Shown one piece after another: positions 2 to 18,807 of a stretch of DNA of 64,000 nt; position 1 is the stretch's first letter, and each line of letters begins with the position of its first letter. The notes beneath the pieces are model-generated. The model had not been told where the DNA came from. It searched no databases and saw only the letters and a list, made by a program, of their open reading frames with translations. Source of the stretch: Nitrospirota bacterium (lineage in GTDB: Bacteria > Nitrospirota > UBA9217); NCBI GenBank assembly GCA_963790205.1, contig CAWBNQ010000010.1, positions 1 through 64,000 of the forward strand. The letters are read 5' to 3'. A program made the translations under genes and the position numbers.

Positions 2-382
2 CTACCCCGCCGCTACGTTCTTCTGTACCAGCGCATCGAGATAATGCAAGAGAGCCTTCTGGTCCCTTTTCGGAAGGCTCTCTATCTTTTTTAACCGCCG
101 CCACAAGGCCGCGTGCTGCGGATCGCGCTGCTGCTTGACGAGCTTCACGCCGAGCAGTTCGTCAGTCGAGACCTTGAGCGCTTTCGCCAGCGGCTCGATC
201 AGGTGCGCCGGGGGATAGCTGGTCTCTCCCTCGTAGTAGGCGATCACCCTGCAGGAGACGTTGACCTTTTCGCCCAGCTCGGTCTGGGTCAGCCCCAGTT
301 CCTTCCGCAAGCTCGCCAGCCTCTTCCCGAAATCCTTCGCAGTGACAGTTGTCCTTTTCATGAACAGCATAATATCACGCAT
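2..382 (-). CDS. XRE-family HTH transcriptional regulator
   Basis: FGKRLASLRKELGLTQTELGEKVNVSCRVIAYYE is a Cro/C1-type HTH; divergent from the primase. Confidence 0.9.
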   Translation of the reverse strand: MRDIMLFMKRTTVTAKDFGKRLASLRKELGLTQTELGEKVNVSCRVIAYYEGETSYPPAHLIEPLAKALKVSTDELLGVKLVKQQRDPQHAALWRRLKKIESLPKRDQKALLHYLDALVQKNVAAG

Positions 383-482: not shown

Positions 483-3152
483 ATGAGGGTTTCAAAGGAG
501 GAGATCGAGAAGATCAAGCAAACCTATGACCTCCGGGCGGTCATCGAGTCCTACGGCGTCACGCTCAAGAAGAAGGGCAGCAACTACGTCGGCCTCTGTC
601 CCTTCCATAAGGAGAAAGCCCCGTCCTTTACCGTTAACCCCAAGACCAACCTTTACCACTGCTTCGGCTGCGATGCCGGCGGCGACGTGATCGGCTTTGT
701 CAGCAAGAAAGAAGGTATCGGCTTCCGGGAGGCAATCGAGAAGCTCCAGGGCCGGAAGCCAGAGTCCAGGACGCAGAAGCCGGAGAAGAAGGCAAAGGAA
801 AGCCCCGCTCCTGAATCATCCATCAACCGCACCCATCTCCTTAACCGCGTCGTCTCGTTCTACCATAAAACCTTCTGTGAAGATCCTCGCGCGCGTGAGT
901 ACATGCGCTCGCGCGGGATCACTGACAACGCTCTCTTCTCAGACTTCACGATCGGCTACAGCAACGGAACCTTGTTGAACACCATCCCGGACGAAGGCGA
1001 TATCCGCGAGGCCCTCAAGGAGATCGGCATCCTGAACGAGCGCGGCCATGAGATGTTTTACGGCTCTGCGGTCTTCCCGATCTTCGACGAGAATAAAGAC
1101 GCTGTCGGTCTCTACGGCCGCAGGATCACAGACGGAGAAACCGCGCACCTGTACTTACCCGGTCCCCGCCGCGGCGTCTTCAACTTCCCGGCGGCGAAGC
1201 GGTCAAAGTCCATCATCCTCACCGAATCGATCATCGATGCTCTCACCCTCTACAACGCGGGCTTCAAGGACGTGCTCCCATGCTACGGCGTGAACGGCTT
1301 TACTCAAGACATGCTCGATCTTCTTACCCGCAGCCAGGTCAAAGAGGTTTACATCTGCTTCGACCGTGACGATGCCGGGAAGGACGGCGCGGAGAAGATC
1401 GCAGGGCAGTTAAAAGAAAAAGGCATCGCTGCTTATATCGTGCAGCTCCCGGCGATTGAAGCCCAGGACAAGGTAGACATCAACTCTTTTATTCTCTTAA
1501 CCGCTGACGCTTCTACGATCTTCGAGCGACTTCTTAAAGAATCCAATCACCGCGCATCGATCCGCTCCGACAAGATCGTGAAGCACGAACAGAAAGCATA
1601 CGAGAAGACCGACACCGGTCTTGTCGTTCAGTACGGCGACCGGCGCTACGACGTGCGCGGGATCATGCGCGAGGGCGTGAAGCTCAAGGCAACGATCAAG
1701 GCGGTCCGGGGAGAGAAGGCAGCGCAGCGGTTCCACCTGGACACGGTCGATCTTTACTCCAATCGAAGCCGTCTCTTCTTCGCCAAAGCCTGCGCCGTGC
1801 TCTTCTCCGAGAAAGAAGAGATCATCACTGAAGACGTGACCAAGCTCATCGATCTGGCCGAGTCCTGGAAGCCGGAGACGAGCGACGCTTCGACAGTCCA
1901 GAAGATGACCAAGGCCGAGGAAGACGAGGCCCTGGAGTTTCTGAAAGACCCGGAACTCTTCTCCCAAATCCTCGTTGACTTCGAGACCGTGGGGATCACC
2001 GGCGAGGACGCAAACAAGCTCATGGGCTATCTCTCGGCCACCAGCCGCAAGCTCGATGAACCTTTATCCATCCTCGTCCAGTCCCGGAGCGCAGCAGGCA
2101 AGAGCACGCTGCAAGACGCCGTGCTCTCGCTCATCCCGGAAGAAGACTACATCAAATACACCCGCCTCACCGGCCAGGCGTTGTTCTACATGCAGGAAGA
2201 CAGCCTTGTCCACAAGCTCCTTGCCATCGAAGAAGAGCACGGGGCAAGAGACGCGTCGTACTCGATCAGGAACATCCAATCATCAAAGTATCTATCCATC
2301 GCTGCCACGGGCAAGGACCCCGCGACCGGCAAGCTCAGGACAGAAGAGTACAAGGTAAAAGGCCCGGTTGCTCTCATGATCACCACAACCGAGGTAGAGC
2401 TTGATTACGAGACCGCTAATCGTTTCGTTACTCTCACCATCGATGAATCAAAAGAGATGACCGAACGCATCCTCCAGAAGCAGCGCGAGCGGCAAACCCT
2501 GGCCGGTCTCTTGAAGAAGGTCGAGACCGAGCGGATCACGAAGCGTCACCACAACGCGCAGCGCCTTCTTAGGCCCCTTCGCGTGATCAACCCCTATGCC
2601 GAGCTTCTCACCTATCCAGCCGAGACGCTGCGCGCCCGGCGCGATAACATGAAGTACCTGGGCCTTATCCTGGCCATCGCCTTCCTGCACCAGTACCAGC
2701 GCGAGATAAAGACGGTCCAGAACAACGGCGACCTCCTTCAATACATCGAGGTGACGCTAAACGACATCGAGAAGGCGAATACGCTCGCCGCCGAGATCCT
2801 CGGCCGCACCCTTGACGAGCTCGCCCCGCCGTCGCGCCTTCTTCTCAAGATGGTCCGCGAGATGGTCGAGGCCCGCTGCAAAGACAGCGAGCCGAAGAAC
2901 TATCACTTCAACCGCCGCGACATACGCGAGTGGACCCGGTGGAGCGACTCGCAGATCAAGCGCCATATCCAGCAGCTCGAAGACCTCGAATACATCTACT
3001 CCGTCGCCGGGAAGAAGGGTAAAGAGTACGTGTACGAGCTTCTCTATCCAGGAGGCGGCGAAGACGGCAAGCCCTTCCTCATGGGCTTAACCAGCATCGA
3101 GGAGCTAAAGAAGAAGCTCGCCGCGCAGAAGAAAGGAGAACGCAATGGATGA
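483..3152 (+). CDS. DNA primase (CHC2 zinc finger + Toprim) fused to a P-loop ATPase/helicase-like domain
   Basis: CPFH..CFGC zinc finger; ESIIDALT and DRDDAG Toprim motifs; SRSAAGKS Walker A; 889 aa. Confidence 0.9.
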   Translation: MRVSKEEIEKIKQTYDLRAVIESYGVTLKKKGSNYVGLCPFHKEKAPSFTVNPKTNLYHCFGCDAGGDVIGFVSKKEGIGFREAIEKLQGRKPESRTQKPEKKAKESPAPESSINRTHLLNRVVSFYHKTFCEDPRAREYMRSRGITDNALFSDFTIGYSNGTLLNTIPDEGDIREALKEIGILNERGHEMFYGSAVFPIFDENKDAVGLYGRRITDGETAHLYLPGPRRGVFNFPAAKRSKSIILTESIIDALTLYNAGFKDVLPCYGVNGFTQDMLDLLTRSQVKEVYICFDRDDAGKDGAEKIAGQLKEKGIAAYIVQLPAIEAQDKVDINSFILLTADASTIFERLLKESNHRASIRSDKIVKHEQKAYEKTDTGLVVQYGDRRYDVRGIMREGVKLKATIKAVRGEKAAQRFHLDTVDLYSNRSRLFFAKACAVLFSEKEEIITEDVTKLIDLAESWKPETSDASTVQKMTKAEEDEALEFLKDPELFSQILVDFETVGITGEDANKLMGYLSATSRKLDEPLSILVQSRSAAGKSTLQDAVLSLIPEEDYIKYTRLTGQALFYMQEDSLVHKLLAIEEEHGARDASYSIRNIQSSKYLSIAATGKDPATGKLRTEEYKVKGPVALMITTTEVELDYETANRFVTLTIDESKEMTERILQKQRERQTLAGLLKKVETERITKRHHNAQRLLRPLRVINPYAELLTYPAETLRARRDNMKYLGLILAIAFLHQYQREIKTVQNNGDLLQYIEVTLNDIEKANTLAAEILGRTLDELAPPSRLLLKMVREMVEARCKDSEPKNYHFNRRDIREWTRWSDSQIKRHIQQLEDLEYIYSVAGKKGKEYVYELLYPGGGEDGKPFLMGLTSIEELKKKLAAQKKGERNG

Positions 3153-3556: not shown

Positions 3557-4552
3557 ATGAGCGCGTTTGACGATCATCTCTCCGGCTTCACCGAACACAT
3601 GAAGGTCAAGAACTACTCTCCCGCGAGCATCGCGGTTTACTCTGAACACCTGCCCGGCCTGTTTGCTCATCTCAAAGAGCAGGGGATAACGGACGTGAAG
3701 CGCGTCAGCCGCGATCATCTCCAAGGCTATCAGCTCTCGATCATGGAGCACATCAGCACCAGAACCAACGACAAGTACTCTGTCGGCACGATCTGTACCA
3801 AGACCCGCGCAATGAAGCGCTTCTTCCAGTACCTCGAAGACAGCGGCGTTATCCTGATCAACCCCGCTGAGCACATCAAAGAGCCGAAGGCAGCAAAGCG
3901 CCTGCCTCGGTCGATCCTGAGTGAAGAAGAGGTCAAGAAGATCCTCGCAGCGCCCAAGCTTACCACGATCAACGGCATCCGTGCCCGCGCCATCCTCGAG
4001 GTCCTGTACTCAACCGGCATCCGTCTCGAAGAGCTGATCAACCTCACCATCTTCGACTGCGATCTCCAGGGCGGCTTGATCCGGGTCAAGGGCAAGTTTA
4101 GCAAGGACCGCGTCGTGCCTCTCGGCAAGCACGCCGTCCGCTTCCTGAAAGAGTACATCACGCAAGTGCGGCCGCAGCAGACCAGGAAGAACAAGGCCGT
4201 CAAGAACCTCTTCGTCAGCCGGTTCAGCGATCCGCTCTCAAAGCAAGTGATCGAGCTGATGGTCCGGGACTACGCCAGAAAAGCCGGGATCAAAAAGAAG
4301 GTGACGCCCCACACCTTCCGGCACACCTTCGCAACGGACCTGATCAGAAACGGAGCCGACATCATCGCGGTCCGGGACATGCTCGGCCACTCTTCCGTAA
4401 GCGCAACAAACATCTACATCCACGTTGCCGGCGTGGACGTAAAGAGAACGCACAGCCAGAGCCATCCGAGAGAGCGGGACAAAGAGACAAGGGAAGAGAT
4501 CATCCCGGATATCCGGTCCTTGAAGGAGCGGCCACATCATGAGCGACTTTAA
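3557..4552 (+). CDS. Tyrosine recombinase, XerC/XerD-like
   Basis: N-terminal SAM-like domain; LYSTGIR, HTFRH and LGH...Y catalytic motifs. Confidence 0.93.
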   Translation: MSAFDDHLSGFTEHMKVKNYSPASIAVYSEHLPGLFAHLKEQGITDVKRVSRDHLQGYQLSIMEHISTRTNDKYSVGTICTKTRAMKRFFQYLEDSGVILINPAEHIKEPKAAKRLPRSILSEEEVKKILAAPKLTTINGIRARAILEVLYSTGIRLEELINLTIFDCDLQGGLIRVKGKFSKDRVVPLGKHAVRFLKEYITQVRPQQTRKNKAVKNLFVSRFSDPLSKQVIELMVRDYARKAGIKKKVTPHTFRHTFATDLIRNGADIIAVRDMLGHSSVSATNIYIHVAGVDVKRTHSQSHPRERDKETREEIIPDIRSLKERPHHERL

Positions 4553-5475
4553 CGCCTTCAAGGAAAAGTACCGCCAGCATCTTACGGTGATCCGCTACGC
4601 TGCCGACACCATCAAGCGCTACATCTACTTCCTTAACCGCTTCTTCGCCTGGCTCGAAGCTCAGAGCGTCACCGAGATCGGCGCAGTCACAAAGGACCAT
4701 GTCCAGGATTACCAGACGCACCTTTACGAGACCGTGAACAGCAGGGGAGAGCCGAACAGCGTCTTCCACCAGAACAACACCTTAAAAGCCATCAAGGGCT
4801 TCTTCCGCTTCCTTGCCGAGCAGAACTACCTTGTCAGCGATCCAGCGAGGGACGTATCCTACGCGCGGACACCGAAGAGACTGCCGCGCTCGATCCTGAC
4901 CGGACCGGAAGCAAAGAAGGTCATCCATGCGCCCAACACCAAGACCGCGACCGGATACCGGGACCGGGCCATCATCGAGGTCTTTTACTCAACCGGGATC
5001 AGAAGAAACGAACTGATCAACCTGCAGCTCTCCGACGTGGACTATCACGAGGGCTTTGTCAGGATCAACAGCGGGAAAGGGGAACAAGGACCGCGTCGTC
5101 CCGATCGGCAAGATCGCCTGCAGGTACATCGAGAACTACGTCAAGGCAGTCCGGCCGATGCTCGTCAAGGACCCGACTAGACAACCATCTCTTCCTCACG
5201 ATCAACGGCAACACGATATCGCGCAGAACCGTGTATGGCAGACTCATCAAGACGCTACAGCAGAAAAGCGAAGATCAAGAAGAACATCACGCCGCACACC
5301 TTCCGGCACACGTGCGCCACGCTCATGCTCAGGAACAAAGCGAACATCAGGCACATCCAGGAGCTGCTCGGCCACTCCTCGCTTGGACTCGACCCAGGTC
5401 TATACATCAGTCACGATCACGGACTTGAAGGAAGTACACAGCAAGTGCCATCCGAGGGAGAAGGATCGTGAGTGA
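4539..5475 (+). pseudogene. Second XerC/XerD-like tyrosine recombinase, frameshifted in this sequence
   Basis: Motifs [28 protein letters not shown] and STQVY are spread over three frames (ORFs 4539-5180, 5056-5475, 5235-5471); may be sequencing error. Confidence 0.8.
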
Positions 5476-5560
5476 CAGCGTGAGGCGTGAGTGATGATAG
5501 AGGCGAGGGACAGTGACAGCGCAGTGACAGTGCAGGGACAAAGGATAGCGGAGGCCTCCG

Positions 5561-6110
5561 GGCTTGCGGGATGGATCGCCCCGCAAACCCTGCGGCATGA
5601 TTTTACCCCCGCCCGCCCCGCGAAACAGGGGCAGAGGCAAGCGCCGCGCCAGCCCTCCCCCCGCCGAGCCCTCCCCCTTTGGAAACCCCCTCCCTGGCAC
5701 CCCCCTCCATCATCGGAACTCCCAAAGGGGGAGGGCTCTCTGCGCACATAGTGTAGCGCCTAGGGGGGAGGATGCTGCGCGGGGCCGACCCTCCCCGCGC
5801 CCTTCGGGTCACGGCGCTTGCAAACCTCTGCCCCTGCTTCGCTCCCGTCTGCCCCCAAGGGGGCGCCCAGGATCGAAAGCCGGGGACAAAGAACGAACCC
5901 TGTGCGGAAGTGTGCTTCACGCCTCCGCTTCGCTCCGGCGTCAAGCCCGCTATCTATGCTCGGTCACGATCCTTGCAAAGAAGCGCAAGGCTCGCGCCCT
6001 CGCACCCGCCCGCCCGCCGCGCGTGAGAGAGCGCCTGCGCTTCGCTCCTGCGCACTCTCCCGCGCTCCCATCCGCCCTGGAAGGGCTCCCCGGAATGCAC
6101 GGCGGTTAAA
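5561..6110. other. GC-rich, highly structured non-coding region
   Basis: Perfect 17-bp inverted repeat 5666-5682/5722-5738, a second stem near 5561-5590, recurrent GCTTCGCTCC; no credible ORF. Confidence 0.55.
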
Positions 6111-6180
6111 AGAAAAGGGGAGAGATGAAGCGAAGAGATGAAGCTTGACTCGAAGGCGGTACGCGATTACAATAGCCCAA

Positions 6181-6318
6181 CTATACTTATGACTTGAAGA
6201 AAAAACGTCGAAAAACGAGCGGAGTCGTAATAGTATGTTGTGCGCGGAAGACCGCATAGATACAGCGTTTTTCTCTTATGAGCCGGGGTCGCCAGGCGCG
6301 TTGATCCACAACGATCAT
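6181..6318 (+). repeat. Leader/junction repeat copy 1 (candidate att site) fused to an Rhs core
   Basis: Shares GTCGAAAAACGAG, AGTATGT, AGACCGCA, GTCGC and GTTGATCCACAACGATCAT with 7497-7633 at matching spacing. Confidence 0.7.
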
Positions 6319-6942
6319 TTAGCCACTCCTCAGAAGATGACAGACGGAACCGGCGCGGTTGTTTGGGCTGCGGACTACAAACCGTTCGGCGAAGTCAACA
6401 TCACCACCAATACCATCACTAACAATCTCCGTTTCCCTGGTCAGTATTACGATGCTGAGTCGGGGCTGAACTACAACTATTATCGTGACTACAACGCTCA
6501 ACTTGATCGCTATAACGAAGCTGATCCGGTGGGGTTGCGGGGTGGCATCAACCTTTATCTTTACGCGGGTGCGAATAGTATACGTTTCACTGATCCACGT
6601 GGATTACTTCTTGGTGGATCCGGTGCAACGATTGGAAATCCACCAGGAACAGCGATTGGCCCTCAACCGCCAGCACCGGGAACCTGTACAAGTGGTTGTC
6701 ACCCTGGGATGCCTTCTCCTAGTCCGATACCACAGTGCAAGAAATGCACACTAAATACCGGTGAATTTAATACTTGTTTGCTAAGAGAATACGCTTTAGC
6801 CCAAGTAGAAGCTGATGCTTGCGCTTTTTTCTGTGCAGCTGCTATTGCTACGCCAAATCCGTATACAATTACGGCTTGCGCCATCTGTGTTGGTACTGCT
6901 GTTGCCCTGACAGTTAAATGTTATAATGAATCATGCCATTAA
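6301..6942 (+). CDS. Orphan RHS repeat-associated core + Cys-rich C-terminal toxin tip 1
   Basis: HNDHLATP, YKPFG, LRFPGQYYDAESGLNYNYYRDY and DPRG motifs; the ORF is open from ATG 6235. Confidence 0.88.
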   Translation: MIHNDHLATPQKMTDGTGAVVWAADYKPFGEVNITTNTITNNLRFPGQYYDAESGLNYNYYRDYNAQLDRYNEADPVGLRGGINLYLYAGANSIRFTDPRGLLLGGSGATIGNPPGTAIGPQPPAPGTCTSGCHPGMPSPSPIPQCKKCTLNTGEFNTCLLREYALAQVEADACAFFCAAAIATPNPYTITACAICVGTAVALTVKCYNESCH

Positions 6943-6956
6943 AATTGGAGAGTAAA

Positions 6957-7376
6957 ATGGGAATTTCTAAAAGAATTTTGGTAACTAAAATATCTGTGCT
7001 GTGTCTCATAGGAATTCTTACCTATAGAGTAATATCTGTGTTTTGGATGTCGGGCCAAAATTTTGCTGCGAATAACATGAGTTCATCTATTGGACTGAAA
7101 TGGCTATTCCTTCCTTTTACTAGTATAATATTTTTTGCGATGCTATGGAATGTACTCAAGCTTGAGTACATATTTTTCGCTTCGGGTCTTGCTTTAATTT
7201 TTGTTGTGTTATACGAATCGTTTTCCCTGCCTGTGCAGGCTCTCAAAGTGCTGCAGACTATTGGGCTAATTTTATATGTAATCGCTGTTGCGCGGATCAG
7301 TGTTTTTTTTATAAGCAAACAATCTAATGAATTTCTTGAAGACTCTATGAAAAAATGGATGGGCAAGAGTAAGTAA
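6957..7376 (+). CDS. Multi-pass membrane protein, putative immunity protein 1
   Basis: Low-GC hydrophobic ORF directly after tip 1; GGAG RBS. Confidence 0.65.
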   Translation: MGISKRILVTKISVLCLIGILTYRVISVFWMSGQNFAANNMSSSIGLKWLFLPFTSIIFFAMLWNVLKLEYIFFASGLALIFVVLYESFSLPVQALKVLQTIGLILYVIAVARISVFFISKQSNEFLEDSMKKWMGKSK

Positions 7377-7405
7377 AGAGTTGGCTTAAATTATCCAAGA
7401 TATTT

Positions 7406-7472
7406 TTACCCCGTCTTCTTCGCCTTCTCACTTCCCAGGAACGGATCGAGGATCTGCACGATCTGCTTACGC
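7406..7472 (-). pseudogene. C-terminal remnant of an XRE-type regulator
   Basis: Encodes RKQIVQILDPFLGSEKAKKTG*, resembling the XRE tail (QKALLHYLDALVQKNVAAG*); same orientation and position after an immunity gene. Confidence 0.5.
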
Positions 7473-7496
7473 TTCGGGGCGGAAGTTAGGAACCAT

Positions 7497-7633
7497 CTAC
7501 ACCTATGATCTTTGAAAAAAGTGTCGAAAAACGAGAGGTGGCACAAGAGTATGTAGCTCTCGTAGACCGCACGGTTTAAGACTATTTTACTTCTTAGTCG
7601 AAGTCGCTTTACGAGTTGATCCACAACGATCAT
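7497..7633 (+). repeat. Leader/junction repeat copy 2
   Basis: Diverged copy of 6181-6318; internal stem ACGAGAG (7531-7537)/CTCTCGT (7557-7563). Confidence 0.7.
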
Positions 7634-8272
7634 CTCGCCACCCCGCAGAAGATGACGGATGCTTCCGGCACGGTTGTATGGGCTGCGGACTACAAACCGT
7701 TTGGAGAGGCGACGATCACCGTCAGCACGATCACGAACAACCTCCGGTTCCCCGGACAGTACTACGATGCAGAGACCGGGCTGCACTACAATTACTTCAG
7801 AGACCATAATCCTATTATCGGGAAATACATAGAACCTGATCGCATCAATTTAACATCTTTACATCTTCCCCTGCCGCTTTTTAAAACAAAGATTAATTAT
7901 GCCGGCAAAAAAGACAAGATTCTGAAAAAAATACTAATCAACTATTCTCTTTATCATCCGCAAACGCAGAATCCGTATCCCTACGTAGAAAACAATCCGG
8001 TTAACCGAACTGATCCGAATGGTGACTATTCTATTGTGGCAGTGGTAGTTGTTGGAGCCGGTATAGCGGCTACTGTATGGTACCAGATTTATAGAGCATC
8101 ACATCCTCCGAATATGCCCAACCCTTCACCACAGGAGCCGGTGATACAGCGACCTCCAGGACAAGAGCCTGCGATATGTCATGTTGTTCATCATCCTAGA
8201 CCGGAAGCCCCAGAATTACCGGACCTCGATGACCCAGAACCAGCTGAAGGGCCAGAACTGCCGATGAGGTAG
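7616..8272 (+). CDS. Orphan RHS core + hydrophobic/Pro-rich tip 2
   Basis: Same core motifs as tip 1; NNPVNRTDPNG cleavage motif followed by a TM-like and Pro-rich tail. Confidence 0.88.
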   Translation: MIHNDHLATPQKMTDASGTVVWAADYKPFGEATITVSTITNNLRFPGQYYDAETGLHYNYFRDHNPIIGKYIEPDRINLTSLHLPLPLFKTKINYAGKKDKILKKILINYSLYHPQTQNPYPYVENNPVNRTDPNGDYSIVAVVVVGAGIAATVWYQIYRASHPPNMPNPSPQEPVIQRPPGQEPAICHVVHHPRPEAPELPDLDDPEPAEGPELPMR

Positions 8273-8297: not shown

Positions 8298-8702
8298 ATG
8301 CTAAAAGAGAAATTAAATATTAATTTTATTGTAGTATGGCTTTACTTGTTGGTTGGAATAGAATCAGCCTTTTCAGGTATCTATTACGACATTCAGTATT
8401 TTTTGCAATCAAGAAATAAATTGTACTTTATAGATTTGTCTATCGACTGTCTTGATGCTATTGGATTGTTTGTAACGCTTGTAATCTCACTAAAGAAAAC
8501 CTCTGAAATGATAAAGATATTGTTATTTCGTATTTTTATAGGGATCGGCTTGACGAGTGTATCAACATTAATGATATTGCGATTCTATTTTTATGTGCCA
8601 ATACCGAGTTTTCCATCGGAGTTAATAATTGCTACTCTACTGATAGACGGCTACATAATTAAAATGATTCTTGATAAAAAAATAGAGCCGTTGCTTACTT
8701 GA
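8298..8702 (+). CDS. Membrane protein, putative immunity protein 2
   Basis: Low GC, about four hydrophobic segments, AGGAG RBS, follows tip 2. Confidence 0.65.
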   Translation: MLKEKLNINFIVVWLYLLVGIESAFSGIYYDIQYFLQSRNKLYFIDLSIDCLDAIGLFVTLVISLKKTSEMIKILLFRIFIGIGLTSVSTLMILRFYFYVPIPSFPSELIIATLLIDGYIIKMILDKKIEPLLT

Positions 8703-8735
8703 GGATAACTTGTTGACATTCTTTGGCGGCAACCC

Positions 8736-9269
8736 TACTATTATCACAACGATCATCTCGGCACTCCCCACAAGATGACGGACTCGACCGGAGCCGTTGT
8801 TTGGTCTGCGTACTACAAACCCTTCGGTGCAGCGACGATCACCGTCAGCACGATCACAAACAATCTCCGGTTCCCGGGGCAGTATTACGATGCAGAAACG
8901 GGGCTACATCAGAACTGGAATCGTGATTACAATTCCTCAAATGGTCGATACCTTGAAGCGGATCCTTTTTTGCTTTCACTTTTTTATCAAGGCAAAATAT
9001 TATTCGTCCCACCATATATCACAAAAAATCCAAGCCTCATACCCGTTTATCTTTATGGGGTAAATAATCCGACGAAATATTTCAATTCAAATGGTTATAA
9101 AGCAGCACAATGTAATCCATGTCCTTATGGAAATCAGCCATGGGTAGCATGCATCTTCTTGTGTGATACAATGTGTAACGTAGCTTTTGATATAGAGGCA
9201 CCTCCCATAACAATCATTTGTATGATCACATGCCATGCAGGTTGCGAGAGTCAAAAGTGCGAGAAATAA
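8736..9269 (+). CDS. Orphan RHS core + Cys-rich tip 3 (first ATG 8775)
   Basis: YYYHNDHLGTP is in frame upstream of the ATG; LRFPGQYYDAETG; degenerate cleavage motif (NNPTKYFNSNG). Confidence 0.85.
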   Translation, partial: YYYHNDHLGTPHKMTDSTGAVVWSAYYKPFGAATITVSTITNNLRFPGQYYDAETGLHQNWNRDYNSSNGRYLEADPFLLSLFYQGKILFVPPYITKNPSLIPVYLYGVNNPTKYFNSNGYKAAQCNPCPYGNQPWVACIFLCDTMCNVAFDIEAPPITIICMITCHAGCESQKCEK

Positions 9270-9364
9270 TAACCAATAGTTGACGGCCTGACTGCACTGC
9301 TTTTTAGCATTACAAGTTTAAATTATTTGAGTCGATTATATTTTATGCTAAATTGGAGGCGGAA

Positions 9365-9817
9365 ATGATATCCGATTACATTGCATACCTAATCCCGCTG
9401 TGGATTATTGCACTCTATATAATTAATGATCAAATCCGAAAAGGATCACTAAAGAAAACACGTGCGCATTATAGTGAAAGATTCTTTACAAATCACCCAC
9501 CTGATATAACTTTTAAAGCAATAATGGCATTCGCAACCCAAAATCGTTTTCGAATAGATGACTTTGACGAAAAACGTCTTGCAGTAATATTGAACGAAAG
9601 AATGACTTGGAATAGCTATGGTTCCCTATACCCAATTTATGTTTTTGAGCAGGCTGGCGGATCCATGGTAGAAGTTGGCATTACAAAGAAGGCAGGGAAA
9701 TTTTCTCTATCCAGTCCATTCGTCCAGAGAGTCTTGACCTTGCGTCTGGAGCGTATGATCAATGCTCTGAAAGGCGCGGTGTTTGCATATGAGGGAACAG
9801 CCGGTAGGTCAGATTAA
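9365..9817 (+). CDS. Membrane-anchored protein, putative immunity protein 3
   Basis: N-terminal TM segment; GGAGG RBS; follows tip 3. Confidence 0.6.
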   Translation: MISDYIAYLIPLWIIALYIINDQIRKGSLKKTRAHYSERFFTNHPPDITFKAIMAFATQNRFRIDDFDEKRLAVILNERMTWNSYGSLYPIYVFEQAGGSMVEVGITKKAGKFSLSSPFVQRVLTLRLERMINALKGAVFAYEGTAGRSD

Positions 9818-9835: not shown

Positions 9836-10115
9836 TCACCCCGCCGCGTTCTTCTGTACGAGCACATCGAGATAATGCAAGAGAGCCTTCTGGTCCCTTT
9901 TCGGAAGACGCTCTATCTTTTTTAAGCGCCGCCACAAGGCCGCGTGCTGCGGATCGCGCTGCTGCTTCATGGCCTTGATCCCCAGGAGTTCATCCGTCGA
10001 GACCTTGAGCGCCTTTGCCAGCGGCTCGATCAGGTGCGCCGGGGGATATTGCGTCTCTCCCTCGTAGTAGGCGATCACCCGGTACGAAACACCGGCCGCT
10101 TTTCCGCCTAGCTGA
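9836..10115 (-). pseudogene. 5'-truncated paralog of the XRE regulator at 2-382
   Basis: Nearly identical C-terminal 80 aa; homology is lost near 10115, with an in-frame stop further upstream. Confidence 0.85.
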
Positions 10116-14847: not shown

Positions 14848-14920
14848 GCATGATTCACAGGCAAAAGTTGATAGAAGATTTATCTACCAACAGGAACATC
14901 AAGACGCGATCCTATGGGTT
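14848..14920. repeat. ~74-bp direct repeat, copy 1
   Basis: Matches 18734-18807 with 4 mismatches and 1 gap; contains an internal palindrome. Confidence 0.9.
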
Positions 14921-15469
14921 CTCATAAGAATCTCGTTTCAGACATTTCTCAAAAGCCATTTTAAAATCATCATCAATATTATCTGGAATCTCATCTCGTA
15001 AACTATTATAAAAGAAGAAGTCGAAGTCACCCCCGGGTTGGTCTTCCCATGAGGAAAAAACAATCACAGGCTTGTCAGACACTTTTTTGATTTGAGTTAT
15101 AAGCTGCTGCTCGCTTTTTCCTCCATAACCAATCGCAATAAAGATATCTGCTTCATCCTCGGCGATCTCCAGCAACTCCTCGCCGGAGGAAACCCACTTA
15201 ATCGTTAAATCATATTTATCATTGAGGACATCCGTGACCCAACCAACTAATAAATCCTTCAAATGGTTGTAAATAGTCACTATTACTACCCGAATTTGAC
15301 GCTTTTTTTGCAGGTCTATTGAGTGGCTTTGTTCGGGTCCACTCAGCGGGTGTGCCTTGAGTCGAGCGAGATCATCTAAAGCACGCTTGACGAGCGATGA
15401 CGGTCTGTTAGAGACCAGGTCCCGATGCGCCTTCTCAAGGGAGTCAGATTCTTTTTTATCCTTTGTCAT
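14912..15469 (-). CDS. Pseudo-receiver-like protein, paralog of 17069-17686
   Basis: Near-identical N-terminal ~45 aa; IRVVI...GEELLEIAE..ADIFI receiver-like pattern. Confidence 0.65.
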   Translation of the reverse strand: MTKDKKESDSLEKAHRDLVSNRPSSLVKRALDDLARLKAHPLSGPEQSHSIDLQKKRQIRVVIVTIYNHLKDLLVGWVTDVLNDKYDLTIKWVSSGEELLEIAEDEADIFIAIGYGGKSEQQLITQIKKVSDKPVIVFSSWEDQPGGDFDFFFYNSLRDEIPDNIDDDFKMAFEKCLKRDSYENP

Positions 15470-15533
15470 TGCCGCCTGCTTTTAAGAATGCGAGTCTGTT
15501 CTGTGCCTGTGTGATGCGATCATCGATGTCTCG
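15470..15533 (-). pseudogene. Duplicated 3' end of the J-domain gene
   Basis: Near-identical to 17687-17750. Confidence 0.8.
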
Positions 15534-15605
15534 GATCGACCAATGAAACTATAATTCCAAACGCGGAATTATGCCTCGTCGCAGTTAACCCGGCAAAGAT
15601 GTCAA

Positions 15606-15815
15606 TTAAATCTGCTTGGCTACGACTACTACGACAGTCACTGGAATTGCGATTCCCAAGATAATCATAACAAGACATCCGCCACCGGTGACCATTTTGC
15701 CAATCTTCCTTTGCCGTCCACTCTTTGTCAATGGTATACCAATAAACCGGGATATTTTAGATTTAACAGCGGAGATCCCAACAAATCTTTTCCACGAAAA
15801 TCCACCACGGTTCAT
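15606..15815 (-). CDS. Small basic protein with a C-terminal TM helix
   Basis: GFSWKRFVGIS...GIPLTKSGRQRK then a hydrophobic tail; GGAGGAG RBS. Confidence 0.7.
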   Translation of the reverse strand: MNRGGFSWKRFVGISAVKSKISRFIGIPLTKSGRQRKIGKMVTGGGCLVMIILGIAIPVTVVVVVAKQI

Positions 15816-15982
15816 ATAGTTTTCTCCTCCCTTGTATTCTATACAATGGCGTCGCCTTACGCAGCGATTTTTTTGCTCCACTGAAAGTCTTTGTGTGCCA
15901 AAATCATAACCACAAATGCGAGTAGAGAAAATGTCTTCAAGCTATTGATCCAAGTGCAGCCGATAGTTAAACAACAAGTCAG

Positions 15983-16906
15983 CTAGCGAATACCGTACCA
16001 CGCTGCAATTTGTTCGTTCTCGCGGTCCGTCAATGGCGCGTCAGGCGAAGCACCTCGTCGCCACGACATCACGTCTAGTCGGTAGGAGTCCGATAAGACA
16101 ACACCAGAAAGCGCTGCGAAATCGGGCAGTCGGAAACACTCGACAAGGGCCGCATCTGCCGATTCTCTGCTCGCACCCATGAGCGTGCGAGCGAGGAACA
16201 GTATGGTCGGCTTGCCGTTCGCCTTCGCTAGTTGCCGACCTTCCGCTACTTTCTTGCGAACCTTCTTTACAACTTGGTCGATTTCAACGTCCGGACTGCC
16301 AGAGAACACCCCAGTGAACTCAGGAATCACTCGCTGGATGGTATTCGTGGCTTCCACGAGGATGTCACGCCCATCGATCCGAATAGCACCATCGACTCCT
16401 GTCGCGCTGTCCTCGATGTCAACCAGTACGCCACGCAGGGCTAAGTCGCCGAGCACGTTGAGCTCGAACAGATGATTCTTGAATGAGGGAGCGTGCCGTG
16501 CGGAGCGAAGTTCATTGAGCTTCACCTTGACCTTGTCTGGCTTGAAAGGCAGAGCAACAACAGCGGCCAGCCGTTGTTCGATGACAGGCAGCATTGTTCT
16601 GAGTGGATCGAGCCCTGTGAAAGCAATGGCAAACTGACCTTCTTCGTCTATTTCCTTCAGACGTCCAGACAGAGCTAATTCCTGATCTTGTTCAAACCAA
16701 GCTACCCCGCGAAGCGGATGGCAGAAATCGTACAGAAAGCCTGTAGGGTCTGCCGGACTTGTGTGAGATGGCGACTCGCTCCGAATAGCGGCCTCGACGG
16801 TCTCAAACCAGCTATCGTCGAGAATGGTCTTTAACACTGAGGTGCTTGTCACTGCGACCCAAAGTGCGCCAAGATTGTTTAGAAGCCCGGTTTGAACCAG
16901 AGTCAT
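15983..16906 (-). CDS. Hypothetical protein, possible PD-(D/E)xK nuclease fold
   Basis: FELNVL...GVDGAIRIDG...LVEAT pattern. Confidence 0.55.
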   Translation of the reverse strand: MTLVQTGLLNNLGALWVAVTSTSVLKTILDDSWFETVEAAIRSESPSHTSPADPTGFLYDFCHPLRGVAWFEQDQELALSGRLKEIDEEGQFAIAFTGLDPLRTMLPVIEQRLAAVVALPFKPDKVKVKLNELRSARHAPSFKNHLFELNVLGDLALRGVLVDIEDSATGVDGAIRIDGRDILVEATNTIQRVIPEFTGVFSGSPDVEIDQVVKKVRKKVAEGRQLAKANGKPTILFLARTLMGASRESADAALVECFRLPDFAALSGVVLSDSYRLDVMSWRRGASPDAPLTDRENEQIAAWYGIR

Positions 16907-17068
16907 GACTCACTCCTAATGACGTTCGTCAATTAACCACCACGTAAGCGTTCCAATAATAGGCAGCTTCACGGGAAGATTATGTTGTGCAACTACTTTT
17001 GTTTATCAGGTATTTTCATAATTCACCAATACATGATATAACGGCAAAAAGAACTATCATTATGTATT

Positions 17069-17686
17069 TCAATTCGCCCTCCTAAGAACCTCGTATATGC
17101 ATTTTTCAAATGCCGTCCTGAAATCAGTCGTATCAGCTGAAAATGGAAGGTAGAAGTCGGCCCCAGTTTGCTTGACTCTTTCCTCTGCTATCTCGTACGG
17201 AAACGGGGGCCTCATGAGCTTTGTCTTAATTGGCAAATAAAGGACTATCATAGGCTTGTCAGATCCCTTTTTGATTTGCTTTATAAGCTGCAAGGATTGT
17301 TCTATGCGTTCTTGATTAGAATAGGAGGTACGAAAAAGAATATTGCTTACAATCACAATAAAGATATCAGCTTCAGCATTCTCGGCAATTTCGAGCAACT
17401 CCTCGCCGTAAAATACCGATTTAATCGTTAGAGCATATTTATCTTTGATGATTTCCTTAATCTCTGCTGAAAATAAATCAAATACATTTTTTTCTACATT
17501 ACCTATTACTACTCGAATTTGACGTTTTTTTAGAATATCCATCGTATGTTCGAGTCCACTCGGCGGGTGTGCTTTGAGCCGAGCGAGATCATCTAAAGCG
17601 CGCTTGACGAGCGATGAGGGTCTGTTAGAGACCAGGTCCCGATGCACCTTCTCAAGGGAGTCAGATTCTTTTTTATCCTTTGTCAT
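17069..17686 (-). CDS. Pseudo-receiver-like protein with an N-terminal extension
   Basis: Receiver-like beta/alpha pattern ending GADFYLP; overlaps the J-domain gene stop. Confidence 0.7.
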   Translation of the reverse strand: MTKDKKESDSLEKVHRDLVSNRPSSLVKRALDDLARLKAHPPSGLEHTMDILKKRQIRVVIGNVEKNVFDLFSAEIKEIIKDKYALTIKSVFYGEELLEIAENAEADIFIVIVSNILFRTSYSNQERIEQSLQLIKQIKKGSDKPMIVLYLPIKTKLMRPPFPYEIAEERVKQTGADFYLPFSADTTDFRTAFEKCIYEVLRRAN

Positions 17687-18470
17687 TGCCGCCTGCTTTT
17701 AAGGATGCGAGTCTGTTCTGCGCCTGTGTGATGCGATCATCGATGTCTCGTGCCATCTCGACCAGCATGTCCCTACCTTGGAGATCGGCTTCACGCACGG
17801 CAATCATAAGAGAATACAACTCTGAAGCGAGAATATCGGACAGCTCTTTCGCCACGTCCTTAATTCGTCGCCGGACTCTTGCGATCGCGCGGATAATCCG
17901 CACGAGTTCAACGGCTGGACCAACTCCTGCTACAGCCTCGGGACTCTCGTGCCATTTGGCGAGGACCTTCTTCATTCCATCCATATCTCGTTTGGAATAG
18001 GCATCATTCAATTCTGCCATGAGCCGCGTTCGTATTTCTTTTGTCGCGTCATCAAGCGCTTTGTCGGGGTGAATGAGAGATGCGATTTGTCTATACAGCG
18101 ACTTGCACGCATCTGATGCCGGGGCGGATGCAGCAATCGGAATCTCATTCTGCTGACTACTATCGAACTCGCGTGCCGACTCTTTTGCCTGGCTGCGGGC
18201 CTGTGTCGCTGCGGTTTTTGCATTTTGATCGTATGGTTTCTTAGCAGCGGTAAGCTCAGCAATCTGGGCTAAGAGATCATCGAGAATAACGTATTTGCGA
18301 CCGACAGTATTATAATAGCGCCTTTGGAACTGCCTCAGCGAAAGCCTGGCATCTTCGAGGTCCATTTCCTTCTGTGCGAGCTCTTCAGAAAGCCGGGACA
18401 GCTCCAGTTTTTTCTCCTGAATCTCAATTTCCTCTGGAGTTTCGGGTGTTGTTATGTTGTGATCTACCAT
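17673..18470 (-). CDS. Coiled-coil protein with a J-domain (DnaJ-like)
   Basis: LYRQIASLIHPD...MAELNDAY. Confidence 0.8.
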   Translation of the reverse strand: MVDHNITTPETPEEIEIQEKKLELSRLSEELAQKEMDLEDARLSLRQFQRRYYNTVGRKYVILDDLLAQIAELTAAKKPYDQNAKTAATQARSQAKESAREFDSSQQNEIPIAASAPASDACKSLYRQIASLIHPDKALDDATKEIRTRLMAELNDAYSKRDMDGMKKVLAKWHESPEAVAGVGPAVELVRIIRAIARVRRRIKDVAKELSDILASELYSLMIAVREADLQGRDMLVEMARDIDDRITQAQNRLASLKAGGNDKG

Positions 18471-18733: not shown

Positions 18734-18807
18734 GCATGATTCACAGGCAAAGGTTGGTAGAAGATTTATCTACCAACAGCAACATTCAAGACGCGACCCT
18801 ATGGGTT
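18734..18807. repeat. ~74-bp direct repeat, copy 2
   Basis: Contains the palindrome GTTGGTAGA-N7-TCTACCAAC followed by TCAAGACGCGACCC. Confidence 0.9.

Follow-up and report, generated by a model that had tools for sequence, protein, structure and literature searches.

The window, the stretch of 64,000 nucleotides analysed here, is the start of contig C10 in an assembly of a Nitrospirota bacterium (GCA_963790205.1). Its features follow one another in the order helix-turn-helix (HTH) gene, CHC2-Toprim primase, two tyrosine recombinases, GC-rich palindromic block, promoter-like site and cassettes, the latter consisting of two leader-tip-immunity units, a third tip-immunity pair and a remnant of the HTH gene (Table 1).

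Table 1. Features of the element and of the cassettes behind it (window positions)
Feature	Position	Strand	Basis or remark
XRE-family HTH repressor, left part of element	2..382	-	Pfam HTH_3/31
CHC2 zinc finger-Toprim primase	483..3152	+	Pfam Zn_ribbon_DnaG, DNAG_N, Toprim
Tyrosine recombinase A, intact	3557..4552	+	Phage_integrase + SAM; R-K-H-R-H-Y complete
Tyrosine recombinase B, split across three frames	4539..5475	+	three-frame translation
GC-rich, palindrome-rich non-coding block, ending in a motif common to relatives	5560..6090	.	88% copy on C2
Sigma-70-like promoter directly before leader 1, directed into tip 1 and immunity gene 1	6145..6173	+	10/12 consensus match
Leader 1, inferred element end (P arm)	6177..6306	+	YxYD-codon-like motif 6182-6193, inverted copy 6224-6235
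Core site 1: left arm 6296-6306, spacer 6307-6312, right arm 6313-6323	6296..6323	.	7/11 complementary
Displaced Rhs core + tip 1	6307..6942	+	Pfam RHS, TIGR03696
Putative immunity gene 1, hydrophobic	6957..7376	+	ORF; role inferred from position
3′ remnant of HTH gene, cut just before leader 2	7406..7485	-	near-identical to G218 HTH-matching sequence
Leader 2, without promoter	7493..7621	+	
Core site 2: left arm 7611-7621, spacer 7622-7627, right arm 7628-7638	7611..7638	.	9/11 complementary
Displaced Rhs core + tip 2	7622..8272	+	Pfam RHS, TIGR03696
Putative immunity gene 2	8298..8702	+	ORF
Cassette 3 join, leaderless, native-type (YYY|H), overlapping a promoter-like site	8713..8744	+	3/11 complementary
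Displaced Rhs core + tip 3	8745..9269	+	Pfam RHS, TIGR03696
Putative immunity gene 3	9353..9817	+	ORF
Truncated second copy of element HTH, after immunity gene 3	9836..10105	-	88-90% identical to positions 4-249

The best NCBIfam match of the HTH protein was the RstR family, below the cut-off, and intact copies of its gene stand after an rhs tip and immunity gene on contigs C2 and C14 and in relatives. The C-terminal region of the primase contains a Walker-A-like motif (GKST in translation), and a PDB sequence search with its C-terminal half found no solved relative (nothing below E 0.028). Recombinase A was matched best by PRK01287, again below the cut-off, and orthologues of recombinase B are intact on contig C2 and in genome G218, where both recombinases of the pair are whole (L025 10141-12055). 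Immunity genes 1, 2 and 3 had no family match in NCBIfam and PHROGs searches, nor did genes 2 and 3 in Pfam. The palindromic block, in which no Rfam family reached its gathering score, ends in a motif that was also found before the leader at L001, L002, L006-L009 and L028, and we infer that the block is a replication origin. Diverged copies of it occur away from rhs (G000:C5:4791-5790 and C14:355640-358840), near a RadC-like ORF and mobile-looking genes, which suggests a common origin-type module. Type II toxin-antitoxin pairs often lie between recombinase and leader, replacing the block or beside it (for example L025 9480-10100, L006 15330-15800 and L158 10204-10793). As for the promoter, the scan returned 10 sites against 7.2 expected, so that the match taken alone is weak support.

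On contig C2 the intact order can be followed through full-length rhs, immunity gene, HTH, primase, two recombinases and palindromic block to a leader cut at the contig end. Short HTH 3′ remnants precede leader 2 and several leaders in G218, G095 and G005, so that such cassettes look like elements whose middle has been lost, and the remnant before leader 2 marks a deleted element body. Contig C2 (G000:C2:1-11600, L013) breaks off within a leader's left arm, and C10 starts at the HTH end; both element copies may therefore form one tandem array with the intervening rhs fragment unassembled. Each copy has one frameshifted recombinase, in complementary fashion (B in the window, 4539-5475; A on C2, 2445-3444), and since other genes of the assembly also look frameshifted, these may be indel errors rather than real decay.

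Several further observations were made along the locus. An inverted repeat joins the HTH 3′ end (window 78-100) with the region before the leader promoter (6100-6122), and in G095, where HTH and promoter are fused, the joint falls on a shared GCTTGAC that is probably a hotspot for deletion. Within the usual DPxG...NP cleavage region of tips 2 and 3 lie long insertions (window 7850-8010 and 8960-9070), and similar inserts are present in tips of G218 and L001. Further along the window (14848-17750) lie two diverged copies of an ORF of 185-205 aa, with the N-terminus in common and a spacing of about 2.2 kb; this pair and a 52-nt repeat (18734-18785) stand downstream of ATPase-like genes.

The original prediction held that the two diverged leaders join their Rhs cores at an identical nucleotide and represent candidate att sites. 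All the motifs on which it drew are in place: a 13-mer at 6207 and 7523, AGTATGT at 6232 and 7548, AGACCGCA at 6249 and 7564 and GTCGC at 6288 and 7603, followed by a 19-mer at 6300 and 7615, which is 93 and 92 nt past the 13-mer. The join is indeed fixed, but it does not fall at 6300 and 7615 as proposed; the true boundary is 6306|6307 and 7621|7622, GTTGATC belonging to the leader. Comparison with the intact rhs genes on C2, on C14 and in G218 shows that this boundary directly follows the final Tyr codon of YYY|HND. Cassette 3 lacks a leader and keeps YYY|HNDH, as had been described, with about 20 nt of native-like sequence upstream. The palindrome earlier seen at the junction (GTTG-ATCCA-CAAC) exists but is not conserved, since four G218 copies read CACACA there; the conserved palindrome is shifted relative to it and reads TGATC-n6-GATCA.

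Without core sequence the two leaders are identical at 87 of 130 positions, and their local alignment score is 45, whereas 2000 shuffles averaged 14.8 and never exceeded 24. Leaders are conserved in other genomes as well, and 45 were examined. That they might be decayed rhs coding sequence was not borne out: the best DNA scores against two intact rhs genes were 22-29, with a shuffled mean of about 19.5, conservation is not lower at third codon positions (0.74) than at the other two (0.64 and 0.68), an in-frame stop interrupts 15 of 32 leaders, and the leaders gave no coding signal. The TTG in frame at the junction, which was said to possibly allow expression of displaced tips, is real, and 25 of 32 leaders have an in-frame ATG, TTG or CTG two codons ahead of the junction; as a tip start, however, it is largely a by-product of the arm sequence. 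A known non-coding RNA family was rejected, the leaders having no Rfam match and two sub-threshold miRNA hits only. Leader folding was not better than that of shuffles (z from +0.7 to -2.3; below -2 in 1 of 8 RNA folds and 0 of 8 DNA folds). When 13 leaders were given to RNAalifold, no consensus structure was predicted other than the junction stem, in which 4 of 5 pairs are compensatory, and no conserved single-strand fold was found beyond this stem.

Other leader features keep a set distance from the junction. A TAY-NNN-TAY-G (YxYD-like) motif, which resembles the target's native left arm, starts 123-125 nt before the junction in 22 of the 45 leaders, which belong to distant types; in the close family there is also a partial copy in inverted orientation, about 83 nt from the junction. 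This fixed distance suggests sites for accessory proteins. A guide-like match of the 5′ motif to the target was also considered and set aside, being true in some lineages only. Further upstream, 154-171 nt from the junction, 15 of 45 leaders have a TTGAC hexamer.

The breakpoint carries what is expected of an att core, namely inverted arms round a spacer of 6-8 bp. One arm consists of the final 11 bases of the leader and the other of rhs bases +7 to +17, the 6-bp spacer between them begins right after the Tyr/Phe codon position, and native rhs has the right arm only, the left arm being contributed by the leader. In other words, the leader end is the reverse complement of rhs from +7, which reads TGATC-n6-GATCA in the window, ACCTTT-n6-AAAGGT on contig C6 and GGATTGTT-n6-AATAATCC at L002 and L028. 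The C6 leader is a third type in the same genome, where it joins rhs at YKY|DDKG (G000:C6:51659-51841, L016 9660-9845) and adjoins an rhs interrupted by an insertion sequence.

By translation, 24 leader junctions were located at 11 rhs sites: YYY|H, YKY|DDKG, YEY|TPKG, |DTNN, NLRF|PGQ, |ISEDP, GRY|ITADP, |C/AxNNP, |DANGN, |DIFNR and YGY|DDL. Every one of these sites starts at the position where a Tyr or Phe codon would be completed, as judged for four types from native sequence of the same locus or genome and for the rest from the family motif. The breakpoint is thus fixed within a lineage, as predicted, but is not universal. At L009 the D codon of YGY|DDL is the exact starting point of a tandem duplication with 100% identity. 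Over the 11 types and 24 junctions a mean of 6.6 of 9 pairs form at a spacer of 6, against 1.6-3.3 at the other spacers from 0 to 12, and native or leaderless joins (eight cases outside the 11-type average) form 1-4 of 9. The true pairing of left and right arms ranks first of 39,916,800 permutations of the 11 types (72.4 vs a mean of 39.8), which is to be read as a rank and not as a probability because the site types are related. Counted from the axis, positions 4 to about 14-16 pair well, positions 2-3 pair no more than by chance, and position 1 has a value of 0.69; all arms approach a loose consensus near ACCGGAT(C/T)ATT.

A sequence-only leader model, arms included, was used to find further leaders. 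It yielded 21 that reach the end, in 7 genomes, with a mean of 7.4 of 11 pairs vs a background of 2.8; 20 of the 21 are of the window's site type and the arms were part of the model, which makes this set only partly independent. Among them one new site, ISKDP, has a matching new arm (9/11). Five displaced fragments, including cassette 3, have neither leader nor core. Metagenomic leaders came from L047, L048, L052, L087, L093, L106 and L110, with L064 being a leaderless join; by tblastn, 17 of 120 metagenome pattern hits were accompanied by element or Rhs genes and 103 were not.

A candidate cognate enzyme lies nearby in recombinase A with its R-K-H-R-H-Y residues, and the element recombinases branch apart from the two host Xer-like proteins in a tree (support 91/92). 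Over the primase segment the C2 element is 95% identical to the window, and over the recombinase segments 58-79%; its leader is of a different type, near-identical to that of L047, from which its target site was deduced, its own junction lying off the contig. The G218 element, which uses the window's site, is 82% identical in the primase and 75-89% in the recombinases, and G218 and L110, both at that site, have recombinase segments 75-90% identical to those of the window. Across these three comparisons, recombinases and leader appear to travel with the target site rather than with the primase. Searches with the element queries detected neither primase nor recombinase A in G005, G042, G087 and G095, which contain 11 of the 21 further leaders, in arrays.

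Matches to the primase came from 7 of the 401 genomes sampled in the phylum, from 12 GTDB loci (Nitrospirota, Syntrophaceae, Syntrophorhabdus, FCPU426 or unclassified bacteria) and from 37 plasmid records, and viral contigs gave no primase relative. Most of the 12 plasmid regions opened contain single-recombinase versions within Rhs or haemagglutinin/CdiA arrays. One such element has close relatives in 56 of 5426 complete E. coli genomes, at a median of 4 places each, and stands in tandem at a vgrG-rhs locus in the two genomes opened. Commensal E. coli strains with tandem elements include those of records CP051765 and CP051727. An automated junction scan of 9 plasmid loci, Janthinobacterium and Ralstonia included, gave a clear core only in Enterobacter. 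There, three post-recombinase junctions and one more at CdiA VENN score 8-9 of 11, against 2 of 11 for full-length cdiA and 3-5 of 11 for three other cassettes; VE makes up the spacer and NN opens the right arm. In single-recombinase elements the VENN codons thus lie in a core of this kind at L158 11104-11131 and L161 15591-15618. Manual follow-up added Salmonella junctions with 8 and 6 of 11 pairs (vs 2 and 3) and an Aureispira junction with a 7-bp spacer (9/11). At DPIG, seven junctions of E. coli, Shigella and Lonsdalea score 5-8 of 11 vs 1 of 11 at four native sites, in a register fitted by eye on two of the seven and with a spacer that differs from the native one. Junctions of the Paraburkholderia (two), Pseudomonas, Leptospira and Caballeronia elements were at background, with no clear core.

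The gene set of the element recurs in tandem units and in small records of distant relatives that are listed as circular. NZ_CP055112.1 (L154) and NZ_CP072857.1 (L155), of 8.8 and 11.3 kb and deposited as circular plasmids, contain only element genes and Rhs tips; they may be excised circles or collapsed tandem repeats. Four sequencing runs from relatives had no informative joint, and shares were at most 0.12 in twenty runs.

Judging from these alignments, the leaders are probably the attP/attR ends of an integrative element that inserts at a fixed rhs codon and replaces the toxin tip. The predicted att sites thus gain support from a core of tyrosine-recombinase layout and from a left arm that co-varies with the target, although the core is another palindrome than the one first pointed out. 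The element likely comprises an Rhs core-tip fragment and an immunity gene together with the HTH gene, the primase, the pair of tyrosine recombinases and a probable origin. At the 6-bp spacer, a circle bearing leader|core-tip would recombine with the native rhs site; the full-length rhs would gain the incoming tip, and behind it would stand the element body and then leader|old tip with its immunity gene, the last two being read from the promoter before the leader. Repeated integration would build the array, and later deletion of element bodies between HTH and leader would leave leader-tip-immunity cassettes such as cassette 2. Primase and palindromic block would replicate the circle. The remaining 115 bp of the leader, in which two inverted YxYD-like motifs flank A-tracts at a fixed distance, would provide accessory sites, possibly for the second recombinase. 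This model does not account for the leaderless joins (cassette 3 and four others), for the joint retargeting of arm and recombinase or for leaders that persist in genomes where our queries found no element enzymes.

It is conceivable, though unlikely, that the site is real but rarely used, serving the first capture of an rhs fragment or dimer resolution, and that routine exchange proceeds by RecA between shared cores with the breakpoints inherited. Some junction types do leave more than 1 kb of shared core, arrays persist in genomes in which element enzymes were not found, and some joins are leaderless; moreover, the portions available of two papers report homologous exchange between main and orphan rhs in Salmonella (PMC3967940) and propose it generally (PMC2935791). 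The cores in this genome are, however, 72-81% identical with longest exact runs of 11-26 nt, which makes routine exchange by RecA less likely. VENN junctions have about 12-15 nt in common with the full-length gene, which is too short for RecA. In addition, the arm-target co-variation and the fixed 125-nt geometry are kept in diverged copies, suggesting continued use of the site.

We regard as very improbable a substrate of folded single-stranded DNA or leader RNA (integron-, CTX- or guide-like), in which the hairpin and the YxYD-like motifs would pair with the target. In favour of it, there is a promoter at the start of the leader, the YxYD-like motif is the same as the codons upstream in the target itself on C6 (YKYD) and at L047 (YEY), the primase could expose single strands, and the HTH is RstR-like; nevertheless, the folding results given above yield nothing besides the junction stem, motif and target do not match at L001, L011 and L093, and the 6-nt loop suits a duplex spacer. 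We give least credence to the leader being an expression module only, with promoter, 5′ UTR and start codon keeping displaced tips and immunity genes expressed. Such a role would agree with the conserved promoter, the frequent in-frame start codons and the smaller number of leaders with stops in the in-frame reading (15/32 vs 21/32 and 30/32). It would leave unexplained the arm-target co-variation, the 6-bp spacer and the fixed length; furthermore, leader 2 and many others lack the promoter yet keep the rest, the start codon follows from the mirroring of GATCA, and there is no codon-position signal.

A broader proposal can also be made, to which we give slightly less than an even chance. Widespread and undescribed self-replicating 'toxin-tip exchange' elements may dock at conserved codons of polymorphic toxins (Rhs YD repeats, DPxG and CdiA VENN) by means of their own tyrosine recombinases, and may retarget by co-evolution of end and recombinase. 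Were this true, the VENN and YD/DPxG motifs would have a second function as att sites, and the arrays of orphan toxins would record past integrations of such elements.

The source of new C-terminal toxins in Rhs/CDI genes, and of the circles proposed in 2009, is a long-standing question. Its default answer is homologous recombination, and no dedicated enzyme is known in the literature examined. Tip exchange is treated as homologous or unspecified recombination in the consulted parts of PMC2935791, PMC3150448, PMC3967940, PMC3482391, PMC8138268, PMC12247911, PMC11278526, PMC10210955, PMC7764402 and bioRxiv 2025.05.08.652813 and 2026.09.08.750204. PMC3482391 reports XerC/D genes adjoining polyimmunity loci and PMC12247911 describes rAID; the element and its core are not described in the parts of either paper that were examined. 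Our literature search found no description of the element, most subscription papers being outside its scope and a mention in the gene-neighbourhood supplement of PMC3482391 being possible. The present finding supplies candidate enzymes, a 28-bp core and a 125-bp accessory arm, with which the question of tip exchange becomes assayable with two plasmids. A recombinase family that has been naturally retargeted to at least 12 coding sequences, with the matched ends on record, is also a resource for studies of specificity.

Displacement of Rhs C-termini via episomal circles has been put forward by Jackson et al. 2009 (PMC2935791) and Koskiniemi et al. 2014 (PMC3967940). As in the systems of these papers, so far as the sections seen describe them, strings of core fragment, tip and immunity gene stand behind an intact rhs, old tips are displaced and a circular intermediate is proposed; unlike there, the tips are found together with recombinases, a primase and an att-like core. 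For orphan cdiA-CT/cdiI modules, which are demarcated at VENN, Poole et al. 2011 (PMC3150448) suggested that recombination takes place at the sequence encoding VENN. They resemble the cassettes in starting at a fixed short coding motif; in the parts consulted that paper names no recombinase or att core, whereas in related elements here VE is the spacer and NN the start of the right arm.

With integrons, and with the Bacteroidales rAID as portrayed in the available part of PMC12247911, the locus shares a tyrosine recombinase beside a cassette array, conserved intergenic motifs and an upstream promoter. It differs from both in that the cassettes keep toxin tips, fuse in frame to the host gene and appear to arrive as whole primase elements. 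An integron was rejected on the score of the IntI-type integrase model TIGR02249 (125.9 bits vs a cut-off of 265) and for want of an attC-like long single-strand hairpin. rAID, an immunity array without toxins and with one recombinase, was likewise rejected, each cassette here keeping an Rhs core and tip. Nor does the locus fit an RIT element with three adjacent recombinases, as there are two here and one in Proteobacteria, or a phage satellite of the PICI/P4 kind, eight PHROGs queries giving only repressor, primase and integrase and no packaging or capsid-redirecting genes. Host XerC/XerD acting at dif was excluded by equivalog scores (263 vs 329.6 and 251 vs 335 bits) and by the separate tree branches.

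The CTX phage is an element that exploits Xer. Like XerC/D-dif and this phage, the locus combines an 11-6-11 core (dif layout as given in the consulted part of PMC10210955), two related recombinases and an RstR-like repressor; unlike them, it has its own recombinases, apart from two host Xer-like proteins, and targets toxin genes instead of dif.

Lambda-type attP/attB systems, and phage 21 and e14 in icd, are cases in which tyrosine-integrase elements insert in a gene and supply a replacement 3′ end. They have in common with the present locus a complex element-side site, a simple target site, a core with a 6-bp spacer and a restored reading frame. They differ from it in three respects: here the 3′ end that is supplied encodes a different toxin domain, integration is aimed at a codon motif of a repeat protein that varies by lineage, and the recombinases are Xer-like (SAM and catalytic domain, Pfam), with two of them in one clade. 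By analogy with these systems, the element appears to work like a tyrosine-integrase element that replaces a gene end.
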